A stretch of 49,804 nt of DNA from a virus (Duplodnaviria; Heunggongvirae; Uroviricota; Caudoviricetes), in the IMG/VR virus record IMGVR_UViG_2579779034_000011, positions 1 to 49,804 of that record, one strand, 5' to 3'. Of this stretch, positions 22,582 through 40,033 are shown one piece after another (the stretch's first letter is position 1; every line of letters begins with the position of its first letter). The notes beneath the pieces are model-generated. The model saw nothing but the letters and a program-made list of their open reading frames with translations. It searched no databases and was not told the DNA's origin. Position numbers and translations under genes: made by a program.

Positions 22582-22766
22582 ACGCCACAATTCAAACGAT
22601 ACCAGAGCTTCTTATCCAGACACGAGGCAATCAGACCGAAGTGGCGAGGATGCTTTCCTGCGCAAGAGGAACAGTGCTCAAGTACAACCGAGACAGCAAA
22701 GGCGAGCGTCACGTAATAGTTAACGGCGTCCTGATGGTCAAACAGGGCAAGAGGGGAAGACCATGA
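22578..22766 (+). CDS. ninH: NinH-like DNA-binding protein
   Basis: GNQTEVARML.C.RGTV.KY matches lambda NinH. Confidence 0.7.
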   Translation: MNATIQTIPELLIQTRGNQTEVARMLSCARGTVLKYNRDSKGERHVIVNGVLMVKQGKRGRP

Positions 22767-23386
22767 GACTCGAAAGCGTAGCTAAATTTCATTCGCCAAA
22801 AAGCCCGATGATGAGCGACTCACCACGGGCTACGGCTTCTGACTCTCTTTCCGTTACTGATGTGATGGCTGCTATGGGGATGGCACAATCACAGGCCGGA
22901 TTCGGAATGGCTGCATTCTGTGGTAAGCACGAACTCAGCCAGAACGACAAACAAAAGGCTATCAACTATCTGATGCAATTTGCACACAAGGTATCGGGGA
23001 AATACCGTGGTGTGGCAAAGCTCGAAGGAAATACTAAGGCAAAGGTACTGCAAGTGCTCGCAACATTCGCTTATGCGGATTATTGCCGTAGTGCCGCGAC
23101 GCCGGGCGCAAGATGCAGAGATTGCCACGGTACAGGCCGTGCGGTTGATATAGCCAAAACGGAGCAGTGGGGGAGAGTTGTTGAGAAAGAGTGCGGAAGA
23201 TGCAAAGGTGTCGGCTATTCAAGAATGCCAGCAAGCGCCGCATATCGCGCTGTAACGATGCTAATCCCAAACCTTACCCAACCCACCTGGTCACGCACTG
23301 TTAAGCCGCTGTATGACGCTCTGGTGGTGCAATGCCACAAAGAAGAGTCAATCGCAGACAACATTTTGAATGCGGTCACACGTTAG
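22763..23386 (+). CDS. Q: late antiterminator Q
   Basis: 207 aa, essentially identical to lambda Q as recalled. Confidence 0.95.
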   Translation: MRLESVAKFHSPKSPMMSDSPRATASDSLSVTDVMAAMGMAQSQAGFGMAAFCGKHELSQNDKQKAINYLMQFAHKVSGKYRGVAKLEGNTKAKVLQVLATFAYADYCRSAATPGARCRDCHGTGRAVDIAKTEQWGRVVEKECGRCKGVGYSRMPASAAYRAVTMLIPNLTQPTWSRTVKPLYDALVVQCHKEESIADNILNAVTR

Positions 23387-23657: not shown

Positions 23658-24149
23658 ATGTTAAAACGTGAAGATGCATTGAGACTTTTTAATTACAATC
23701 CAGATACTGGAATTCTTACATGGAAGAATCCACCTCGGTCCTCTAGATTTATCTATGGCGCTGTTGTTGGCTATAAAACAAATGGATATCTGCAGGTAAA
23801 ACTTTATGGAATGCGGCTATATGTCCATAGAATTGCATGGCTGATGGTTTACAATGATTGGCCAACCGATGTGATTGACCATATTAATGGTGATAGGTCT
23901 GATAACCGGATAGCCAATCTTCGTGTTGTTACTAACACTCAAAACTCATGGAACAGCAAGATGAGGAAAAACAATTCATCTGGTGTGAAGGGAGTGACTT
24001 TTAATTCTGCTGCAAACAAGTGGGTTGGAAGAATTAGAGTCAATGGTAAAAGGATTCATGTAGGGTGTTTTGACGATATCGAGGAGGCTAGAAAGGCAAT
24101 GGAAAATGCCAGGATAAAATATCATGGTGAATTCTCCAGTATGGGATAG
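23658..24149 (+). CDS. HNH homing endonuclease with AP2-like DNA-binding domain
   Basis: VIDHINGDRSDNRIANLR HNH motif; C-terminal GVKGVTFNSAANKWVGRI AP2-like; absent from lambda at this position. Confidence 0.8.
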   Translation: MLKREDALRLFNYNPDTGILTWKNPPRSSRFIYGAVVGYKTNGYLQVKLYGMRLYVHRIAWLMVYNDWPTDVIDHINGDRSDNRIANLRVVTNTQNSWNSKMRKNNSSGVKGVTFNSAANKWVGRIRVNGKRIHVGCFDDIEEARKAMENARIKYHGEFSSMG

Positions 24150-24740: not shown

Positions 24741-25064
24741 ATGAAGATGCCAGAAAAACATGACCTGTTAGCCGCCATTCTCGGGGCAAAGGAACAAGGC
24801 ATCGGGGCAATCCTTGCGTTTGCAATGGCGTACCTTCGCGGCAGATATAATGGCGGTGCGTTTACAAAAACAGTAATCGACGCAACGATGTGCGCCATTA
24901 TCGCCTGGTTCATTCGTGACCTTCTCGACTTCGCCGGACTAAGTAGCAATCTCGCTTATATAACGAGCGTGTTTATCGGCTACATCGGTACTGACTCGAT
25001 TGGTTCGCTTATCAAACGCTTCGCTGCTAAAAAAGCCGGAGTAGAAGATGGTGGAAATCAATAA
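24741..25064 (+). CDS. S: holin S (dual-start MKM motif)
   Basis: 107 aa, essentially identical to lambda S. Confidence 0.95.
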
Positions 25065-28164: not shown

Positions 28165-28659
28165 ATGAATATGGCAGCACCAAAGGGCAACCGATTTTGG
28201 GAGGCCCGCAGTAGTCATGGGCGAAATCCTAAATTCGAATCGCCTGAGGCGCTGTGGGCTGCTTGTTGTGAATACTTCGAGTGGGTGGAAGCTAACCCGC
28301 TATGGGAGATGAAGGCGTTCTCGTATCAGGGTGAAGTGATACAAGAGCCTATCGCCAAGATGCGAGCGATGACCATTACCGGCCTCACTCTGTTCATTGA
28401 TGTGACGCTTGAAACATGGCGCACATATCGCCTGCGAGAAGATTTATCTGAAGTCGTTACGCGAGCAGAGCAGGTCATCTACGACCAGAAATTCTCTGGC
28501 GCAGCCGCTGACCTTCTCAACGCTAACATCATCGCCCGTGATTTGGGCCTCAAAGAGCAGTCGCAAGTTGAAGACGTGACACCTGATAAGGGAGATCGCG
28601 ATAAGCGGCGCTCTCGTATCAAGGAGCTATTCAACCGTGGAACTGGACGCGATTCTTGA
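28165..28659 (+). CDS. 3: terminase small subunit (P22 gp3-like); start may be the Met at 28171
   Basis: [48 protein letters not shown] ... matches P22 gp3. Confidence 0.9.
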
Positions 28660-30139
28660 TAACCTGAGCGACGAAGAGCAAATCGAATTGCTCGAGCTAC
28701 TCGAAGAAGAAGAGAACTACCGGAACACACACCTGCTATATGAATTTACGCCATACAGCAAACAGCGTGAGTTCATCGACGCCGGGCATGACTATCCAGA
28801 GCGCTGTTTTATGGCTGGTAACCAGCTTGGTAAGTCATTTACTGGTGCTGCTGAAGTCGCGTTTCACCTTACCGGGCGTTATCCTGGCACAAAAGGCTAT
28901 CCTGCTGATGGTAAATATGGCGGAGAGTGGAAAGGTAAGCGTTTCTATGAGCCTGTTGTCTTCTGGATTGGCGGCGAGACAAACGAGACTGTAACCAAAA
29001 CGACTCAACGTATCCTGTGCGGTCGTATCGAAGAGAATGATGAGCCTGGCTACGGTTCCATACCGAAAGAAGACATCATTAGCTGGAAGAAGTCTCCTTT
29101 CTTTCCGAACCTTGTTGATCATCTTCTGGTTAAGCATCACACGGCTGATGGCGTTGAAGATGGCATTTCAATCTGCTACTTCAAACCATACTCGCAAGGC
29201 CGTGCTCGCTGGCAGGGTGACACAATCCACGGCGTGTGGTTTGACGAAGAGCCGCCATACAGCATTTATGGTGAAGGCCTTACCCGTACCAACAAATACG
29301 GGCAATTCTCAATTCTGACGTTTACCCCGCTGATGGGGATGTCTGACGTTGTTACCAAGTTCCTGAAGAATCCCAGCAAGTCTCAGAAAGTGGTCAACAT
29401 GACCATCTATGACGCTGAGCACTACACCGACGAGCAGAAAGAGCAAATCATCGCATCCTATCCTGAGCATGAGAGAGAGGCGCGTGCTCGCGGTATTCCT
29501 ACGATGGGTAGTGGTCGAATCTTCCAGATACCGGAAGAGACGATTAAGTGTCAGCCGTTTGAGTGCCCTGATCACTTCTACGTAATTGGCGGGATGGATT
29601 TCGGATGGGATCACCCGCAGGCGCAGGTTCAGCTTTGGTGGGATAAGGACGCAGACACAATCTACGTTTCACGCGCGTGGAAGGCGAAAGAAAAAACAGC
29701 CGTTCAGGCGTGGGGAGCTGTTAAATCATGGGCGCATAAAGTGCCAACAGCATGGCCTCATGACGGAAACCAGCACGAGAAGGGCGGCGGTGAGCAGCTC
29801 AAAGGGCAGTATGCAGATGCTGGTTTTATGATGTTGCAGGAGCATGCGACATGGCCTGATGGTGGTAACGCGGTGGAGCCTGGCATCACTGAATTGCGAG
29901 ACATGATGCTCGATGGTCGCTTCAAAGTATTCAACACCTGTGAGCCATTCTTTGAGGAGTTCCGCCTCTATCACCGTGATGAAAACGGGAAGATCGTCAA
30001 GCTTAACGACGACGTTCTCTCAGCCGTTCGCTATGCATACATGATGCGCCGCTTCGCCAAAATGATGCGCGACATCAAAAAACCAAAAGAGAAAAAGATA
30101 CCAGCCCCAATCAGGCCCATCGCACGGTCAACAAGATAG
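28637..30139 (+). CDS. 2: terminase large subunit (P22 gp2-like)
   Basis: 500 aa; N-terminal [35 protein letters not shown] and ATPase/nuclease core match P22 gp2. Confidence 0.95.
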
Positions 30140-30148
30140 ATACTGTTG

Positions 30149-30649
30149 TTACGGCTTGAGAAATTCAGAGGCAGCGGAATTCAGAGCGTTAATAAATGCT
30201 ACCTTATGCTTGTATGCATCTAATGCTGTAGCGAATCCGCTTTTTGTGTATTTCTTGCCTTCAACCACAAATTGCCACATGTAGTTATTTGTGTCCTTGC
30301 GATAGGAAACTCCTTTGTATCCAGTTGAATTGTCGCAATCCATGCCACGGTTTAGTCCGTTCAACTGCTTATTGGTATCTCTAAGATTACAGATGCGGTT
30401 ATCAGCACGGTTTCCGTTTATGTGATCTACTGCTTCGGGCCAGTAACCATAGTAGTGCGCAAAACAAATTCTGTGCACGTAGTACAGTTTTTTACCAAGC
30501 CTTACATCAAGGTATCCGTTTCCATGCTGGCACCCAACGGGCTTGCCGTTAAGGTCTGTCCTCCTTGTGCGATTAGCCGCGTACAAAATTCCGGTTTCAG
30601 CATCGTATGTGAAATTTTTCCTTATATCTTCTATAGATGGATGGCTCAC
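30149..30649 (-). CDS. HNH homing endonuclease with AP2-like domain (paralogue of 23658..24149)
   Basis: VDHINGNRADNRICNLR HNH motif; GYKGVSYRKDTNNYMWQF AP2-like; antisense between terL and portal. Confidence 0.8.
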   Translation of the reverse strand: MSHPSIEDIRKNFTYDAETGILYAANRTRRTDLNGKPVGCQHGNGYLDVRLGKKLYYVHRICFAHYYGYWPEAVDHINGNRADNRICNLRDTNKQLNGLNRGMDCDNSTGYKGVSYRKDTNNYMWQFVVEGKKYTKSGFATALDAYKHKVAFINALNSAASEFLKP

Positions 30650-30699: not shown

Positions 30700-32868
30700 A
30701 TGACTGACAACGCAGAGCGATTAAATAAGATACTGCAAGCATTCGATGTTGATTGGATGTCTTCCGACGAGGCGAGAACAGAAGCCTCTAACGATTTATA
30801 CTTCAGTCGCATAAGCCAATGGGATGACTGGCTATCAAACTACACCACCCTGCAATATCGCGGACAATTCGATGTTGTTCGCCCGGTGGTCAGGAAGCTG
30901 GTCGCAGAGATGCGCCGGAACCCTATCGACGTTCTCTTCCGACCCAAAGACGGCGCTAATCCTGATGCAGCCGATGTGTTGATGGGGATGTATCGTACTG
31001 ATATGCGGCATAACACGGCAAAAATTGCCGTTAACGTTGGCGTTCGTGAGCAGATAGAGTCCGGCGTTGGTGCATGGCGTCTGGTCACGCAGTACGAAGA
31101 CAACGATCCAACAAGCAACAATCAGGTAATTCGACGCCTGCCAATTCATGAAGCCTGCTCACACGTCATATGGGACGCCAACAGCAAGCAGATGGATAAG
31201 AGCGACGCTAAGCACTGCACGGTGATTAACGCCTTGTCGCGCAATGGCTGGAAAGAGTTCGCAGAGGATTACGGTATTGATCCGGACACCTTGCCATCTT
31301 TCCAGAATCCGAACGATACATGGCTGTTTCCGTGGGTATCGAATGATGTCGTCTACGTCGCTGAGTATTACGAGGTCGAAGAGAAGAAAGAGAAAGTCTT
31401 CATCTACCGCGACCCGCTGACAGGTGAGCCGGTCAGCTATTACCAGCAGGATATCAAAGACGTCATCGACGACCTGGCTAATCGTGGATTCATTAAGGTA
31501 GCAGAGCGTAAGGTCAAGCGTCGGCGTGTGTATAAGTCGATCATCACCTGCACGCAGATACTGAAAGACCGCGAGAAGATAGCTGGAGAGCATATCCCAA
31601 TCGTTCCTGTGTACGGCGAATGGTCATTCGCTGGTGACAAGGAGTGCTACGAGGGCGTGGTAAGGCTGACGAAAGACGGTCAACGCCTTCGTAACATGAT
31701 CATGTCGTTCAACGCCGATATTGTTGCTCGTTCACCGAAGAAGAAACCTACCTTCTTCCCTGAGCAAATCGAAGGCTACGAATACATGTACGGTGGAAAT
31801 GATGACTATCCGTACTATCTGCAGAACAGGACCGATGAAAACGGTAACGACCTGCCGATTGGTCCAATCTCCTACATGGAAAACCCTGAAGTGCCGCAAG
31901 CCAACGCTTATATGCTTGAGGCTGCCACCAACGCAGTGAAAGAGGTGGCTAGTCTTGGTGTGGATGCGCAGGCAGCAAACTCTCAGGTCGCTTTCGATAC
32001 CGTCAATCAACTGAACATGCGGGCAGACCTTGAGACATACGTGTTTCAGGATAACCTGGCTACCGCAATGCGACGTGATGGCGAGATTTATGCCTCAATG
32101 GTCAACGATATTTATGACGTTCCTCGTCATGTAACGCTGACACTTGAAGATGGAAGCGAGAAAGACGTTCAACTCTATGCGCAAGTTGTCGATTACCAGT
32201 CCGGCAATGTGGTCACACTCAACGACATTCGCGGTCGCTATGAGTGCTATACAGACGTCGGACCATCCTTCCAGAGTATGAAGGAACAGAACCGCGCAGA
32301 GATTCAGGAGTTGCTAACCAAGGTTCCGCAAGGTACTCCAGAGTTCCAGATGCTGATGCTGCAATACTTCACGTTGCTTGACGGTAAAGGCGTCGAGATG
32401 ATGCGAGAGTACGCGAACAAGCAACTGGTGATGATGGGGCTGAAGAAACCAGAAACACCTGAAGAGATGGAGATGGTGCAGCAGGCACAACAACAGCCGC
32501 AGCAGCCATCAGCAGAGCAAATTCAGGCGCAGGGTATCCTTCTGCAAGGTCAGGCTGAATTGCTCAAGGCAGAGAACCAACAGGCGCAGATTCAGGTTGA
32601 AGCCGCCAAGGTTGAAGCCCAAAACCAACTCAACGCCGCGAAGATTGCGGAAATCTTCAACAATATGGACCTCGACAAGCAGGCAGAACTGCGTGAGTAC
32701 CTCAAGCTCGTAGGTCAATTCCAGCAACAGCGCAGCAAAGATGCTCGTGCTAACGCTGAGCTGCTTCTTAAAGATGCAGACCAGACTCATTCACAACGCA
32801 TGGATTTCGCGAATCTTATGCGTCAAGTTCAAATCCCCTCCGGCGGAGTAGCCGAGACACCTCAATAA
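30700..32868 (+). CDS. 1: portal protein (P22 gp1-like)
   Basis: 722 aa; extensive match to P22 gp1 including the C-terminal coiled-coil region. Confidence 0.95.
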
Positions 32869-35131: not shown

Positions 35132-35725
35132 ATGAGCGTAATGATTTTTCAGGCTGGCGGAGATACCAAAATATGGGGACGCAAGCTGAAAACGAAAACC
35201 GTTGATCCTGATGATGTAGCTGTGCACTTAGCAAATGGCTGGTATAAGCACCCTGACGATGTTCCTGATGATCATCTTGTTGGTGATCAAATTGGGAGTG
35301 TTGGCGGAGGTGAAACTTCCCCAGTTGATATGGGCGAAGTGTCCGACGGTTATCACACTTTTAACGAGCTTTACGCTCACCGAGTGCGCCTCTTCTCATC
35401 GCTGATGCATGCTTACGCTGAGCTTTCGTGGTGGTCTCGCAAACACAGTGACGGTGAAGAGTGGGATGGCTGGATTATTGCTGGTATCACCACTCCAGAA
35501 GGCGAAATCACTTATCACCTACCTGTTGAAGAAATCGAGTTCCTTCCTGAAGGTACTGAGCTTGAGTTCGGGAAAGAGTGGGATGGTCATGAAGCAAATG
35601 ATGTTCTTGGACGACTCCTGAGTTTGCGTCCGGCCATTGCAGAGCCACAGCCAGAAGAAAAACAGCGTAAAAAGCCTGGTCGAAAACCTAAGGCGGCAGC
35701 AGATGAACCTGACAACGAAGGGTGA
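35132..35725 (+). CDS. hypothetical protein between coat and gp4
   Basis: 197 aa; GGAG RBS; acidic; 3' end overlaps the gp4 start by 23 nt. Confidence 0.55.
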
Positions 35726-36203
35726 TTTAGTTCTTGCGGCATTACGTAAGCTCGGTGTGGCATCAAATGCCACGTTAACCGATGTCGAACCGCAGTCTAT
35801 GGAAGACGGCGTCAACGACCTTGAAATGATGATGGCTGAATGGCTTGGCGGTGATGCGTCACCTGGTATCAACGTTGGCTACATTTTTGCTGATGCAGAT
35901 GTTGCTCCGGATCCGGGCGATGAGCACGGTTTATCAAATAACGCTATCAATGCTGTCATTTTCAACCTTGCCTGCCGCATTGCTCCGGATTATGCGCTGG
36001 AAGCACCTGCAAAACTTATAACTACTGCCAGATACGGGAAAGAGCGACTCGTCAAACTGTCTGCAATGGACAGAGCAAAAGCCGCCAAATGTAAGTCCGG
36101 TTATCCAAACCGTATGCCTGTTGGTAGCGGTAATCAGTTGGCGAAGTGGAACGGTTGGAATTACTTCCACCGGAAGGAACCTTGCGATAACGGGAGCGAA
36201 TAA
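35703..36203 (+). CDS. 4: head-tail adaptor (P22 gp4-like)
   Basis: 166 aa from [10 protein letters not shown]; matches P22 gp4 ([16 protein letters not shown] ... [13 protein letters not shown]). Confidence 0.9.
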
Positions 36204-37622
36204 ATGCCGATTCAGCAACTTCCGCTTATGAAAGGTGTCGGCAAAGACTTTCGAAACGCCGACTATATCGACTATCTGCCAGTGAATATGTTGGCAACCC
36301 CCAAAGAAATCCTGAACAGCAGCGGATATCTTCGCTCATTCCCGGGCATTGCCAAACGCTCTGATGTGAACGGTGTATCGCGCGGCGTCGAGTACAACAT
36401 GGCGCAGAATGCTGTCTATCGTGTGTGTGGCGGCAAGCTGTACAAAGGCGAAAGTGAAGTCGGTGATGTTGCCGGAAGTGGTCGTGTATCAATGGCTCAT
36501 GGTCGGACATCACAGGCGGTGGGCGTTAATGGTCAACTGGTAGAGTATCGTTATGATGGCACGGTTAAAACCGTCTCAAACTGGCCTACAGACAGCGGAT
36601 TCACTCAGTATGAGTTAGGTTCTGTTCGTGACATTACGCGCTTACGCGGGCGTTATGCGTGGTCAAAAGACGGCACTGATTCATGGTTTATCACTGACCT
36701 TGAAGACGAATCGCATCCTGACCGCTACAGTGCACAATATCGTGCCGAGTCTCAGCCGGACGGCATCATCGGCATCGGAACATGGCGAGACTTCATCGTC
36801 TGCTTTGGTTCATCGACGATTGAATATTTCTCCCTGACTGGCGCAACCACCGTTGGTGCCGCTTTGTATGTTGCACAACCATCGCTGATGGTGCAGAAAG
36901 GCATTGCCGGGACTTACTGCAAAACGCCGTTTGCTGATTCCTATGCGTTCATCAGCAACCCGGCAACGGGTGCGCCGTCTGTGTACATCATCGGCTCCGG
37001 TCAGGTGTCACCAATCGCCAGCGCGAGCATTGAGAAAATCCTCCGCTCCTACACTGCTGATGAACTGGCTGATGGCGTGATGGAATCGTTGCGATTTGAT
37101 GCGCATGAGTTGCTGATTATCCACCTTCCGCGCCATGTTCTCGTGTACGACGCATCTTCAAGCGCCAATGGTCCGCAATGGTGTGTGTTGAAAACTGGCT
37201 TGTATGACGATGTGTACCGCGCTATCGACTTCATTTACGAAGGAAATCAGATAACGTGCGGCGATAAGCTGGAGTCCGTGACCGGGAAATTGCAATTCGA
37301 CATCAGCAGTCAGTACGACAAGCAACAGGAACATATTTTATATTCTCCTTTAATAAAGGCAGATAACGCTTTAATAAATGACCTTGAATTAGAAACATCG
37401 GGCGGCGTGTGTGATAGAATAGATAAAATATTTATATCAGCCACTACAGATGGAATTAGTTACGGTCGTGAGCAAATGGTCGTATTACAAAAACCATTTG
37501 TATATGACAATCGCGTTTTATGGCGAAAAGTTGGTCGAGTTAGACGCCTCATTGGATTTAAATTCAGAGTTATTGCAAAAGGTCCTGTTACATTATCAGG
37601 CCTTTCTATTCGTGTAACATAA
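36204..37622 (+). CDS. 10: tail hub/head completion protein (P22 gp10-like)
   Basis: 472 aa, same length and position as P22 gp10. Confidence 0.85.
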   Translation: MPIQQLPLMKGVGKDFRNADYIDYLPVNMLATPKEILNSSGYLRSFPGIAKRSDVNGVSRGVEYNMAQNAVYRVCGGKLYKGESEVGDVAGSGRVSMAHGRTSQAVGVNGQLVEYRYDGTVKTVSNWPTDSGFTQYELGSVRDITRLRGRYAWSKDGTDSWFITDLEDESHPDRYSAQYRAESQPDGIIGIGTWRDFIVCFGSSTIEYFSLTGATTVGAALYVAQPSLMVQKGIAGTYCKTPFADSYAFISNPATGAPSVYIIGSGQVSPIASASIEKILRSYTADELADGVMESLRFDAHELLIIHLPRHVLVYDASSSANGPQWCVLKTGLYDDVYRAIDFIYEGNQITCGDKLESVTGKLQFDISSQYDKQQEHILYSPLIKADNALINDLELETSGGVCDRIDKIFISATTDGISYGREQMVVLQKPFVYDNRVLWRKVGRVRRLIGFKFRVIAKGPVTLSGLSIRVT

Positions 37623-37643
37623 ATCGAAACTAAAGGAGTAGAT

Positions 37644-38189
37644 ATGTTGAGTGAAAACGCAAAAGATATTCCTGGATATGAAGGTTTATATGCCGTAACA
37701 GAGGATGGGCGAGTATATTCTCACTCACGTGTTGTTAAAGCTGCGCATGGCAGCACGCAACTCAGAAAGGGGCGGTGGCTAAAACAACACGAGAATAATA
37801 AAGGTTATCTATATTTGCCACTTAGTGTTGATGGAGTTAAAGTAAAATGGCTTGTGCATAGGCTTGTCGCTCTTGCTTTCGTCCCCAATCCAGAAGGCAA
37901 GCCGTTCATAAATCACATAGATAACAACCGAAAAAATAATAATGCTTCTAATTTAGAGTGGTGTACTCAAAAGGAGAATATGAAGCATTGCTCATCTCAA
38001 GGCAGGGTGAAGTTTCCGGCTTTAAAAGGAGAAAATAATCCAATTTCAAAGCTATCATATGAGCAAGTAATAGAAATAAAGAAATCAAAGGGAGTTAATC
38101 AAAGAGAGCTTGCTAAAAAATACTGTGTCAGTCAGACGGTGATTCACAATATCCAGTCTGGTAAATCGTGGAGGCATGTTAATGGCTGA
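37644..38189 (+). CDS. HNH homing endonuclease (NUMOD4 + HNH + C-terminal HTH)
   Basis: [23 protein letters not shown]4-like; [19 protein letters not shown] motif; AT-rich; overlaps the gp26 start. Confidence 0.8.
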
Positions 38190-38883
38190 TTCGAATCTCA
38201 ATGTGCCGGTAATCATCCAGGCTACACGACTCGATACATCAATCCTTCCACGCAATATATTCAGCCAGTCTTACCTGCTGTATGTCATTAATCAGGGGGC
38301 TGATGTCGGCGCAATTGCCGGGAAGGCAAATCAGGCTGGTCAGGGCGCTTACGATGCCCAGGTAAAAAACGATGAACAGGATGTCGAACTGGCTGATCAC
38401 GACGCAAGAATCACCGCAAACACAAAAGCGATAAATCTCCTTGAGGTCAGGTTAACAACTGCCGAAGGGAAGATAGTCGTACTGCGTAGCGATGTTGATT
38501 ACTTGCTGGATGAGGTTATCGATATTCAGGCGCATCTGGTCACTGTTGACCAAAGGCTGGATGACGTAGAAAGCGATGTATCTGACATTAAGAGTGATTA
38601 CGTATCGAAAACCGTAACCGAATCGCAGTCTCTTGCGTCACCGCTGGATGTAAAAACATCATATTCAGTTGATGGAATTCAGGTTGTTGGAGCAAGAAAT
38701 ACCGGATGGACTGCAGCCACAGGTACGCCACTTCTTGGCTCATTCAACGCTAACCAGTCATACACTGTCGGCACTACGTACACGCAATCCGAAGTCGCAG
38801 CTCTCGCTACAGGTTTGCAGCAGGCGCGGCAGCGTATTCTGGCGCTTGAAACGGCACTTAGATTACATGGGCTGATTGACTGA
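38182..38883 (+). CDS. 26: tail needle (P22 gp26-like)
   Basis: [25 protein letters not shown] ... C-terminal [27 protein letters not shown]. Confidence 0.9.
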
Positions 38884-39338
38884 TGATTACATTCAAACCA
38901 ACGCGAAACATCGACCTGATCGAAGCAGTAGGAAATCACCCTGACATCATCGCCGGGAGCAACAACGGTGATGGATACGACTACAAACCTGATTGCCGTT
39001 ACTTTGAGGTGAACGTGCACGGTCAGTTTGGCGGCATTGTTTACTATCAGGAGATTCAGCCGCTGACATTCGATTGCCACGCCATGTACCTGCCAGAGGT
39101 TCGTGGATTCAGCAAGGAAATCGGGCTGGCGTTCTGGCGATACATTCTGACTAACACCACCGTTCAGTGCGTCACATCGTTCGCTGCACGCAAATTCCGC
39201 CACGGTCAGATGTATTGCGCAATGATTGGCCTTAATCGTGTAGGAACCATCAAGAAATACTTCAAAGGCGTGGATGACGTGACGTTTTACAGCGCCACAC
39301 GCGAAGAACTAATCGACTTCCTGAATCACGGGAGATAG
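38883..39338 (+). CDS. 14: head assembly protein (P22 gp14-like)
   Basis: 151 aa; position and size as P22 gene 14. Confidence 0.75.
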   Translation: MITFKPTRNIDLIEAVGNHPDIIAGSNNGDGYDYKPDCRYFEVNVHGQFGGIVYYQEIQPLTFDCHAMYLPEVRGFSKEIGLAFWRYILTNTTVQCVTSFAARKFRHGQMYCAMIGLNRVGTIKKYFKGVDDVTFYSATREELIDFLNHGR

Positions 39339-39340
39339 CC

Positions 39341-40033
39341 ATGTTATATGCATTTAAGCTGGGCAGAAAACTGCGCGGCGAGGAACCTTATTGCCCTGAA
39401 AAAGGCGGGAAAGGTGGCTCCGATAAAAGCGCAAAGTATGCAGCAGAAGCCCAGAAGTATGCCGCAGACCTGCAAAATCAGCAGTTCAACACCATCATGA
39501 ACAACCTGAAGCCGTTTACTCCTCTGGCTGGGAAGTATGTCGGCAGCCTTGAGAACTTATCGTCTCTGGAGGGGCAAGGTCAGGCACTTAACCAGTATTA
39601 CAACTCTCAGCAGTACAAAGACCTTGCAAGTCAGGCTCGTTATCAGAGTCTGGCGGCAGCGGAAGCAACAGGTGGATTGGGTTCCACCGCAACCAGTAAT
39701 CAGTTAGCAACAATCGCACCAACTCTTGGCCAGCAATGGCTATCTGGACAAATGAACAACTACCAGAATCTGGCAAATATTGGTCTTGGCGCTCTTCAGG
39801 GACAGGCAAACGCCGGGCAAACATATGCCAACAACATGAGCCAGATTTCACAGCAAAGCGCGGCACTGGCGGCGGCAAACGCTAATAGACCTTCCGGCCT
39901 TCAATCTGCAATAGGCGGGGCTGCCTCTGGAGCAATTGCTGGAGCACAGCTTGGCAGCATTGTACCTGGTATTGGTACTGGTATTGGTGCCGCTGTTGGC
40001 GGCGGTCTTGGTCTGCTTGGTTCACTGTTTTAA
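39341..40033 (+). CDS. 7: ejection protein (P22 gp7-like)
   Basis: 230 aa; Gln/Ala/Gly-rich; conserved position. Confidence 0.75.
   Translation: MLYAFKLGRKLRGEEPYCPEKGGKGGSDKSAKYAAEAQKYAADLQNQQFNTIMNNLKPFTPLAGKYVGSLENLSSLEGQGQALNQYYNSQQYKDLASQARYQSLAAAEATGGLGSTATSNQLATIAPTLGQQWLSGQMNNYQNLANIGLGALQGQANAGQTYANNMSQISQQSAALAAANANRPSGLQSAIGGAASGAIAGAQLGSIVPGIGTGIGAAVGGGLGLLGSLF

Follow-up and report, generated by a model that had tools for sequence, protein, structure and literature searches.

A gene for an I-HmuI-type HNH homing endonuclease and a linked gene-10 3' tract as a probable two-part mobile cassette at the gp10/gp26 junction of P22-like phages

The DNA analyzed here (the window) is the whole 49,804-nucleotide (nt) stretch of IMG/VR virus record IMGVR_UViG_2579779034_000011 (Caudoviricetes), a Lederbergvirus (P22-like) genome from the Enterobacterales. 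Between its gp10 (head closure) and gp26 (tail needle) homologues lies a free-standing gene that, as judged from domain matches and modeled fold, is an intact I-HmuI-type HNH homing endonuclease gene (NUMOD4 plus HNH_3 plus helix-turn-helix, HTH). This gene appears to be one part of a larger unit: positions 37332-38189 probably form a two-part mobile cassette that consists of foreign DNA for the last 96 codons of gene 10 followed by the I-HmuI-type HNH gene. The most likely account of its distribution is intronless homing of the free-standing endonuclease gene, with co-conversion of the gene-10 3' end. An earlier note on this DNA had described an AT-rich, 181-amino-acid (aa) open reading frame (ORF) between the gp10 and gp26 homologues, with NUMOD4, HNH, and C-terminal HTH parts; we found all of this as described, at the location given. 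It missed that the foreign AT-rich DNA extends beyond the ORF, beginning within gene 10 ~310 nt before the ORF start, and that this segment is part of the proposed mobile unit. The features concerned are as follows, in window positions (GC, fraction of guanine plus cytosine).

36204..37622, + strand: gene 10 (gp10, head closure/DNA stabilization); Pfam Phage_stabilise, E = 2.6e-283; PHROG head closure Hc3
36204..37331, + strand: gene 10 codons 1-376, resident backbone and putative left homology arm; GC 0.52
37332..37622, + strand: gene 10 codons 377-472 plus stop, foreign AT-rich C-terminal allele; GC 0.35
37623..37643, + strand: 21-nt spacer with Shine-Dalgarno sequence AAGGAG, read directly from the sequence
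37644..38189, + strand: NUMOD4-type HNH gene, 181 aa, ATG start; predicted free-standing homing endonuclease gene
37662..37823, + strand: NUMOD4 N-terminal beta-sheet DNA-binding module, residues 7-60; Pfam E = 2.4e-11, 44.1 bits, cut-off 23.4
37851..37982, + strand: HNH_3 catalytic (beta-beta-alpha-metal) domain, residues 70-113; Pfam E = 1.7e-10, 40.8 bits, cut-off 24.8
37911-37916, 37950-37952, and 37977-37979, + strand: key residues N90-H91, N103, and N112, from the I-HmuI alignment
38058..38156, + strand: C-terminal three-helix HTH DNA-binding domain, residues 139-171; AlphaFold2 model plus weak HTH_3 match
38182..38883, + strand: gene 26 (gp26 tail needle); PHROG 1219, E = 2e-113; conserved 5' end is the putative right homology arm

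The profile search that the earlier note had proposed places both NUMOD4 and HNH_3 above their Pfam cut-offs. The HTH_3 match (residues 144-174) is weak and below its cut-off (E = 0.0048, 17.3 bits versus 23); the AlphaFold2 model has helices at residues 139-147, 153-160, and 164-171, with a pLDDT (predicted local distance difference test) of 86-94 over residues 131-170. This model, built from an alignment of 47 homologues, reaches an overall pLDDT of 90.5 and comprises an N-terminal beta region (strands within residues 6-70, matching the NUMOD4 module), a beta-beta-alpha core, and three C-terminal helices. When compared with the PDB by Foldseek, its top and sole significant match was I-HmuI (1u3e_M; E = 8.8e-9, 182 columns, TM scores of 0.53 and 0.55, root mean square deviation of 8.3 Å, as expected for a multidomain protein modeled without DNA). 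A phmmer search of PDB sequences likewise gave I-HmuI (1u3e) as the sole real match (E = 2.3e-12). The protein also matches PHROG 59, "HNH endonuclease" (E = 3e-58), and no family in NCBIfam; PADLOC returned only its generic "HEase" model (E = 8e-27), which restates the family and is no evidence of a defense system.

I-HmuI residues D74, H75, N87, and N96 align to N90, H91, N103, and N112 of the 181-aa protein. These four residues, together with H115, are invariant across the 47 homologues (39-85% identical), so the catalytic His and Asn residues that the earlier note had singled out for checking are in place. The family is large (3288 homologues at E ≤ 1e-3). Comparison of the gene with its orthologue on L005, a diverged P22-like contig, gave pN = 0.10 and pS = 0.73 (nonsynonymous and synonymous divergence), or dN/dS of ~0.04, which indicates that the protein is under purifying selection.

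Similarity to phages HK620 and 683R2 collapses inside gene 10, at ~37325-37335, rather than at its stop codon; the insert is larger than the ORF, with a sharp mosaic joint at gene-10 codon ~377. Compared with HK620, gp10 residues 1-376 are 99.7% identical in aa and 95.7% in nt, and residues 377-472 are 61.5% and 56.9% identical, with synonymous sites saturated. GC content falls from 0.52 to 0.35 at codon ~377. The same drop occurs in the diverged P22-like contigs L005 (0.56 in gene 10, then 0.41 and 0.42 in the tract and endonuclease gene) and L007 (0.53, then 0.38 and 0.38). The C-terminal 96 residues of gp10 fall into two clades: one is linked to the endonuclease gene and includes the window, Escherichia coli O111 and KE40, and L005-L007 at 83-100% identity, along with Providencia at 71%; the other, found without this endonuclease gene or with other HNH types, includes HK620, 683R2, and UPF_BP1 and is ~61% identical to the window. 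Within the first clade, O111 loci carrying the allele B described below encode a tract 100% identical in aa to that of the window, and the tracts of KE40, L005, and L007 are 83-92% identical.

The tract and the endonuclease gene are found together. In the 50,697 phage records searched, a gp10 C terminus >67% identical in aa to that of the window occurs in one only, the unannotated Escherichia phage HZ41. Among E. coli complete genomes the AT-rich tract is present in 56, at ≥96% in 52 and at 86.8% in 4, numbers that equal those of the endonuclease carriers exactly (52 for alleles A plus B, 16 + 36; 4 for allele C). No tract carrier without an endonuclease gene was found in the phage records or, as the matching counts indicate, in the E. 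coli complete genomes. Foreign gene-10 codons 377-472 are thus present in exactly the endonuclease-bearing genomes, the pattern expected of co-conversion; in the E. coli set the linkage looks complete, and repair-driven conversion presumably lies behind it.

The junction is polymorphic among close relatives, with precise empty sites. When we compared 36900-38900 with the 50,697 phage records by megablast, the whole segment was present in one record, HZ41. Another ~16 HK620-like records (HK620, CUS-3, APC_JM3.2, Huey, IME10, E212, and HF4s among them) match both flanks over a span of 1441 nt versus 2001, with ~560 nt missing. The P22/Sf6 comparison suggested in the earlier note came out as expected: annotated gp10/gp26 junctions are uninterrupted in both, with a 3-nt gap in P22 and a 1-nt overlap in Sf6, and in HK620 stop and start share one base. 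As P22, Sf6, HK620, and the majority of relatives lack the gene, it is not a conserved structural gene.

We also searched 5426 complete E. coli genomes, of which 922 match some part of the 2-kb region, a denominator that counts any partial match to the query. A NUMOD4 gene occupies the junction in 56 of the ~922, and ~94% have none. Three alleles were distinguished: allele A, that of the window (WP_021514124.1; 16 genomes at 98.7-100% nt identity); allele B (WP_000947776.1, 177 aa with 50% aa identity; 36 genomes, chiefly of O111:H8 and porcine enterotoxigenic E. coli, ETEC); and allele C (WP_042048397.1, 181 aa, 56% identical; 4 genomes). Examples of the latter two, and a fourth occupant of the same junction, are as follows.

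L015, 1945-2478: allele B in E. coli O111:H- 11128, 50% aa identical, same junction, 21-nt spacer
L016, 1945-2490: allele C in E. coli KE40, 56% aa identical, same junction, 21-nt spacer
L002, 2226-2720: HNH_3 plus AP2 gene, 164 aa, in phage vB_EcoP-683R2 (URC09345.1), E = 4e-16

All three alleles end in ...WRHVNG, an ending that appears to be dictated by the overlap with the gp26 start; the L005 and Providencia orthologues end similarly (HVNG/HING), and the L007 gene does not overlap gp26. Alleles A and B share 96-100% nt identity in the gene-10 tract but diverge over the first 60-90 nt of the endonuclease gene; the gene body is ~50% identical in nt, and similarity returns over the last ~35 nt. 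This pattern indicates that the endonuclease gene body was exchanged within a conserved frame. The 683R2 gene is accompanied by a GAGTAAT repeat and an ordinary, GC-normal gene-10 3' end; its annotation as "endolysin" is an error, as the gene is an HNH_3 plus AP2 endonuclease. More distant orthologues keep the site as well: those at 85% (P0003), 75% (P0004), and 68% aa identity (P0005, Providencia rettgeri chromosome) all lie between Phage_stabilise and needle genes. The spacer is 21 nt in P0003 and P0004, as it is in L005, L007, L011-L016, and others, and 27 nt in the Providencia loci.

A related arrangement is found at the other end of gene 10. At the gp4/gp10 site, near the 5' end of gene 10, UPF_BP1 and ~18 E. 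coli genomes carry a related 194-aa NUMOD4 HNH gene. In L018 (E. coli NZ_OZ040490.1, 1084-1849), and likewise in L003 (Salmonella phage UPF_BP1, 2525-3109), it is inserted after gene-10 codon 31. Upstream of it the original 31 codons are left as a remnant, and its 3' end overlaps a second, recoded version of these codons, by which gene 10 is made whole again. Original and recoded codons encode similar protein with no detectable nt similarity, which mirrors the gene-10 3' tract of the gp10/gp26 element. Spacer, ribosome-binding site (RBS), and first ~47 codons of the 194-aa gene are 86-89% nt identical to those of the window gene.

Allele A is far more uniform than the DNA around it. Ten loci with allele A were compared, namely, those of the window, of HZ41, and of eight E. 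coli prophages whose sources (human, cattle, poultry, pork, and water) span several continents. In the spacer plus endonuclease gene their nucleotide diversity is 0.0063, and in the gene-10 tract it is 0.016; it reaches 0.058 in 5' gene 10, 0.16 over the first 200 nt of gp26, and 0.36 over the remainder of that gene. The value for the endonuclease gene lies ~9-fold below the left flank and 25- to 57-fold below gp26. One endonuclease allele is joined to both HK620-type and Sf6-type "knob" needles. The element is much less diverged than its flanks and is set in incongruent ones, a sweep-like pattern that points to recent horizontal spread. The core shared among the loci runs from ~37325-37335 to ~38190-38220, with divergence on the gp26 side setting in at ~38193-38220; the left boundary clusters at ~37322-37335, where homology resumes, without a gradient of tract ends, and does not locate the cut site.

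Two allele-A prophages are damaged at or near the locus. In L021 (1-1918; E. coli 2017.18.04CC, NZ_AP027850.1), a defective prophage, a deletion fuses the portal gene to the middle of gene 10, and the endonuclease gene is still intact and 99.4% nt identical to that of the window. In L024 (1976-2673; E. coli M160133, NZ_CP022164.1) an IS1A element sits between the gp10 stop and the endonuclease start and separates the gene from the upstream late-operon transcript.

In the window, nt 37644-38181 are identical to the gene annotated as WP_021514124.1, which RefSeq labels "NUMOD4 domain-containing protein." The ORF begins 21 nt after the gp10 TAA stop (37620-37622), and AAGGAG (37633-37638) ends 5 nt before its ATG. 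The last 8 nt of the ORF overlap the start of gp26 (ATGGCTGA, 38182-38189), in agreement with the ~8 nt reported before, given that gp26 starts at the Met of MADSNL; this start (38182) is backed by the HK620 alignment and by RefSeq annotations of identical loci, and a mechanical ORF call puts it 6 nt earlier, at 38176. With a GC content of 0.39, the ORF is AT-rich next to the late operon (0.49) and 5' gene 10 (0.52). Both gp10 and gp26 are full length, and Rfam detected no group I or group II intron or other relevant structured RNA in 36000-39500; the endonuclease gene sits between host-element genes, outside any intron or intein. Between 37000 and 38500 promoter-like sites were no more frequent than expected (3 versus 3.3) and there were no terminators, and the RNA fold of 37585-37680 was not unusual (z = -0.88), with no sign of an RBS-sequestering hairpin.

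Together these data suggest how the cassette may move. The endonuclease would be translated from its own Shine-Dalgarno sequence on a read-through transcript of the late operon, and the stop/start overlap with gp26 would restore the gp10-gp26 translational coupling present in empty-site phages. Should a phage or induced prophage with the cassette meet a cassette-free P22-like genome in the same cell, the enzyme would nick or cut that genome, the probable site being either the gp10/gp26 junction or a point within or close to the GC-normal 3' end of ordinary gene 10; recombinational repair would then copy the cassette over from the carrier. Because the AT-rich tract has almost no nt homology to the ordinary allele, crossovers would be forced outward, the left one to a point upstream of gene-10 codon ~377 and the right one into the conserved gp26 5' end, and the tract would always be co-converted. 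The tract may also render the carrier immune to its own enzyme, and is possibly a co-converted, immune version of the target, or it may simply hitchhike. We infer nuclease activity, the target position, the type of cut (nick or double-strand break), and the tract's part in immunity.

Several observations weigh against homing with co-conversion. In the window protein an Asn (N90) stands where I-HmuI has its first metal ligand, D74; as this Asn is invariant in the subfamily, it is probably functional. No direct donor was found among the metagenomic and genomic orthologue loci L005-L010, which are 68-85% identical in aa and ~70-80% in nt across the cassette. The E. coli set is clonally biased, many allele-B genomes being O111:H8 or porcine ETEC, and its 56 genomes are not 56 independent events. 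Cassette divergence between the window and L005 or L007 (75-80% nt identity) about equals that of the backbone (71-73%), which indicates that long vertical co-residence also happens. Finally, linkage and low diversity could both come from ordinary homologous recombination of a recently introduced segment. Taken to its full extent, the last point would make the cassette a passive passenger: an inactive or immobile gene that, with the gene-10 segment, was introduced once from a low-GC P22-like phage and then spread by ordinary recombination. P22-like genomes are highly mosaic, 5' gene 10 and 5' gp26 offer homology arms, and decaying prophages such as L021 (the portal/gp10 fusion) and L024 (IS1 beside the gene) retain the gene; the similar divergence of cassette and backbone from L005 and L007 also fits. 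We nevertheless think a passive passenger unlikely. Invariant catalytic residues and a dN/dS of ~0.04 argue that the gene is selected as a protein, the ~9- to 57-fold deficit in diversity needs drive or strong selection, and three NUMOD4 alleles and an HNH_3 plus AP2 gene at exactly one junction are what targeted insertion typically yields, in contrast to random mosaic joints.

Less probable again is that the enzyme serves the phage chiefly as a weapon, damaging co-infecting or co-resident P22-like competitors by marker exclusion, competition, or defense of the lysogen, with the gene-10 allele conferring immunity. Complete linkage of the nuclease to a divergent allele of an essential gene is consistent with such a role, and there are precedents in the marker exclusion reported for I-HmuI-like HNH genes of Skunavirus (PMC12724721) and for free-standing endonucleases of T4 (PMC2988022); the PADLOC match could be added, though it restates the family only. 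A late-operon gene with no promoter of its own above chance should, however, be silent in a lysogen and unable to protect it, and the great majority of E. coli P22-like prophages (~94%) do without a NUMOD4 gene at this site. Use as a weapon overlaps with homing and does not exclude it: a competitive or defensive role is possible as a by-product, and a lysogen-protecting role is unlikely. That the gene is encoded within the morphogenesis operon could also suggest a packaging cofactor, an HNH protein that assists terminase as HK97 gp74-type proteins do in cos phages, but this we regard as very improbable. P22-like phages package by a headful mechanism that uses the terminase nuclease. The gene is flanked by tail genes, with terL (28637-30139) ~7.5 kb upstream, its NUMOD4-HNH_3-HTH architecture is that of I-HmuI, and the relatives without it, P22, Sf6, and HK620 included, package normally. 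A terminase-associated HNH gene of the HK97 gp74 type was rejected for this locus, which is neither beside terminase nor conserved across the phage group.

Homing with co-conversion also has a stronger version, which we put forward tentatively and think somewhat doubtful. In it the cassette would be an obligate two-part drive: the enzyme would target the ordinary gene-10 3' end or the gp10/gp26 junction of rivals, the diverged allele would be the immunity determinant, the three NUMOD4 alleles, with their different DNA-binding bodies, would compete, and the gp4/gp10 sister would be a mirror image of the same arrangement. Each homing event would then rewrite one-fifth of an essential tail-hub gene, and endonuclease genes would directly cause intragenic mosaic joints in structural genes of temperate phages.

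Two further HNH genes are present in the window.

23658..24149, + strand: HNH_3 plus AP2 gene, 163 aa, between antiterminator gene Q (22763..23386) and holin gene S (24741..25064)
30149..30649, - strand: HNH_3 gene, 166 aa, E = 5e-13, GC 0.43; antisense, between terL (28637-30139) and the portal gene (30700-32868)

The earlier note had counted three endonuclease genes of two types, and with 37644..38189 there are indeed three; its placement of all three within one late operon needs one qualification, as the gene at 30149-30649 is antisense to the operon. Compared with lambda-like and P22-like relatives, the gene at 23658-24149 represents ~680 bp of inserted DNA, covered by 0 of 201 matching phage records; that at 30149-30649 corresponds to an insertion of ~566 bp, which all 8 close phage relatives found, HZ41 included, lack. 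These two genes are related to each other (phmmer E = 2.8e-25) and share only the HNH core with the gene at 37644-38189, which had been called unrelated to them; the term is nearly right, as they have AP2 where it has NUMOD4 and HTH. HZ41 has the NUMOD4 gene but not the terL/portal HNH gene, which indicates that the insertions come and go independently. To call three such genes high for a temperate lambdoid phage seems reasonable, since all are insertions relative to close relatives. Elsewhere, between the coat gene and gp4, the window has a 197-aa ORF with a WDGH domain (35132-35725, + strand; PF25311, E = 1.3e-39) where HK620 has the 62-aa hkbT; this ORF may be another variable insert.

The nearest characterized relative of the window protein is I-HmuI, a nicking HNH endonuclease of Bacillus phage SPO1 (PDB 1U3E), which has the same order of N-terminal NUMOD4, HNH, and C-terminal HTH; its general base His and Asn residues H75, N87, and N96 are conserved as H91, N103, and N112. 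The two proteins are ~27% identical and differ in the first metal ligand (D74 versus N90). I-HmuI is encoded in a group I intron of the DNA polymerase gene, whereas the window gene is free-standing between tail genes. In genomic behavior the locus resembles the intronless homing of T4-like phages, whose free-standing endonuclease genes are intergenic, are patchily distributed among close relatives, co-convert their flanks, and replace each other at one locus; the T4 HNH enzymes MobA and MobE nick DNA, and T4 free-standing endonuclease genes show high-frequency inheritance (PMC2988022, PMC2790892). Empty sites, a linked tract, and several occupants are the parallels to MobA/MobE and to the GIY-YIG enzymes SegA-G. 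The window differs in its host, which is a temperate P22-like prophage instead of a virulent T-even phage, and in its tract: 96 strongly diverged codons of an essential structural gene, completely linked to the endonuclease gene in the data searched.

Lactococcal Skunavirus phages that are otherwise alike differ in how many free-standing I-HmuI-like HNH genes they have and where; these genes group by insertion site and are linked to marker exclusion (PMC12724721). The window orthologues similarly keep the gp10/gp26 site down to 68% identity; the two sets differ in phage lineage and insertion sites. Homing endonuclease genes have been noted before as sporadic inserts in P22-like phages, between terminase and portal in Salmonella phage SEN22 (PMC5261728) and as gene 31 of epsilon34 (PMC2629481). 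The SEN22 insertion, called "unique" (PMC5261728), is at the same junction as the window gene at 30149-30649; both reports concern other sites and other HNH types than the gp10/gp26 gene. We found neither the gp10/gp26 insertion nor its linked gene-10 module described in the literature searched, which excludes the main survey of P22-like assembly clusters.

The gp10/gp26 endonuclease locus reveals no new kind of system: the enzyme family and the class of selfish element are already well known, and what is new here is the two-part cassette and its clean population signature. Most of what is known about free-standing homing endonucleases comes from virulent T4-like phages, and this locus is a natural, experimentally tractable case in temperate P22-like phages, with isolates available for crosses (HZ41 carries the gene; HK620, CUS-3, Sf6, and P22 are without it). 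The linkage suggests where the target should be sought, namely, the ordinary gene-10 3' end and the junction. For annotation, genes now labeled "NUMOD4 domain-containing protein" or "hypothetical protein" should be renamed homing endonuclease, and comparative genomics of the P22 family should not treat the gene-10 3' end as vertically inherited. More generally, the complete linkage of the endonuclease gene with 96 diverged codons of an essential tail gene suggests a concrete mechanism by which a mosaic joint may arise within a structural gene.

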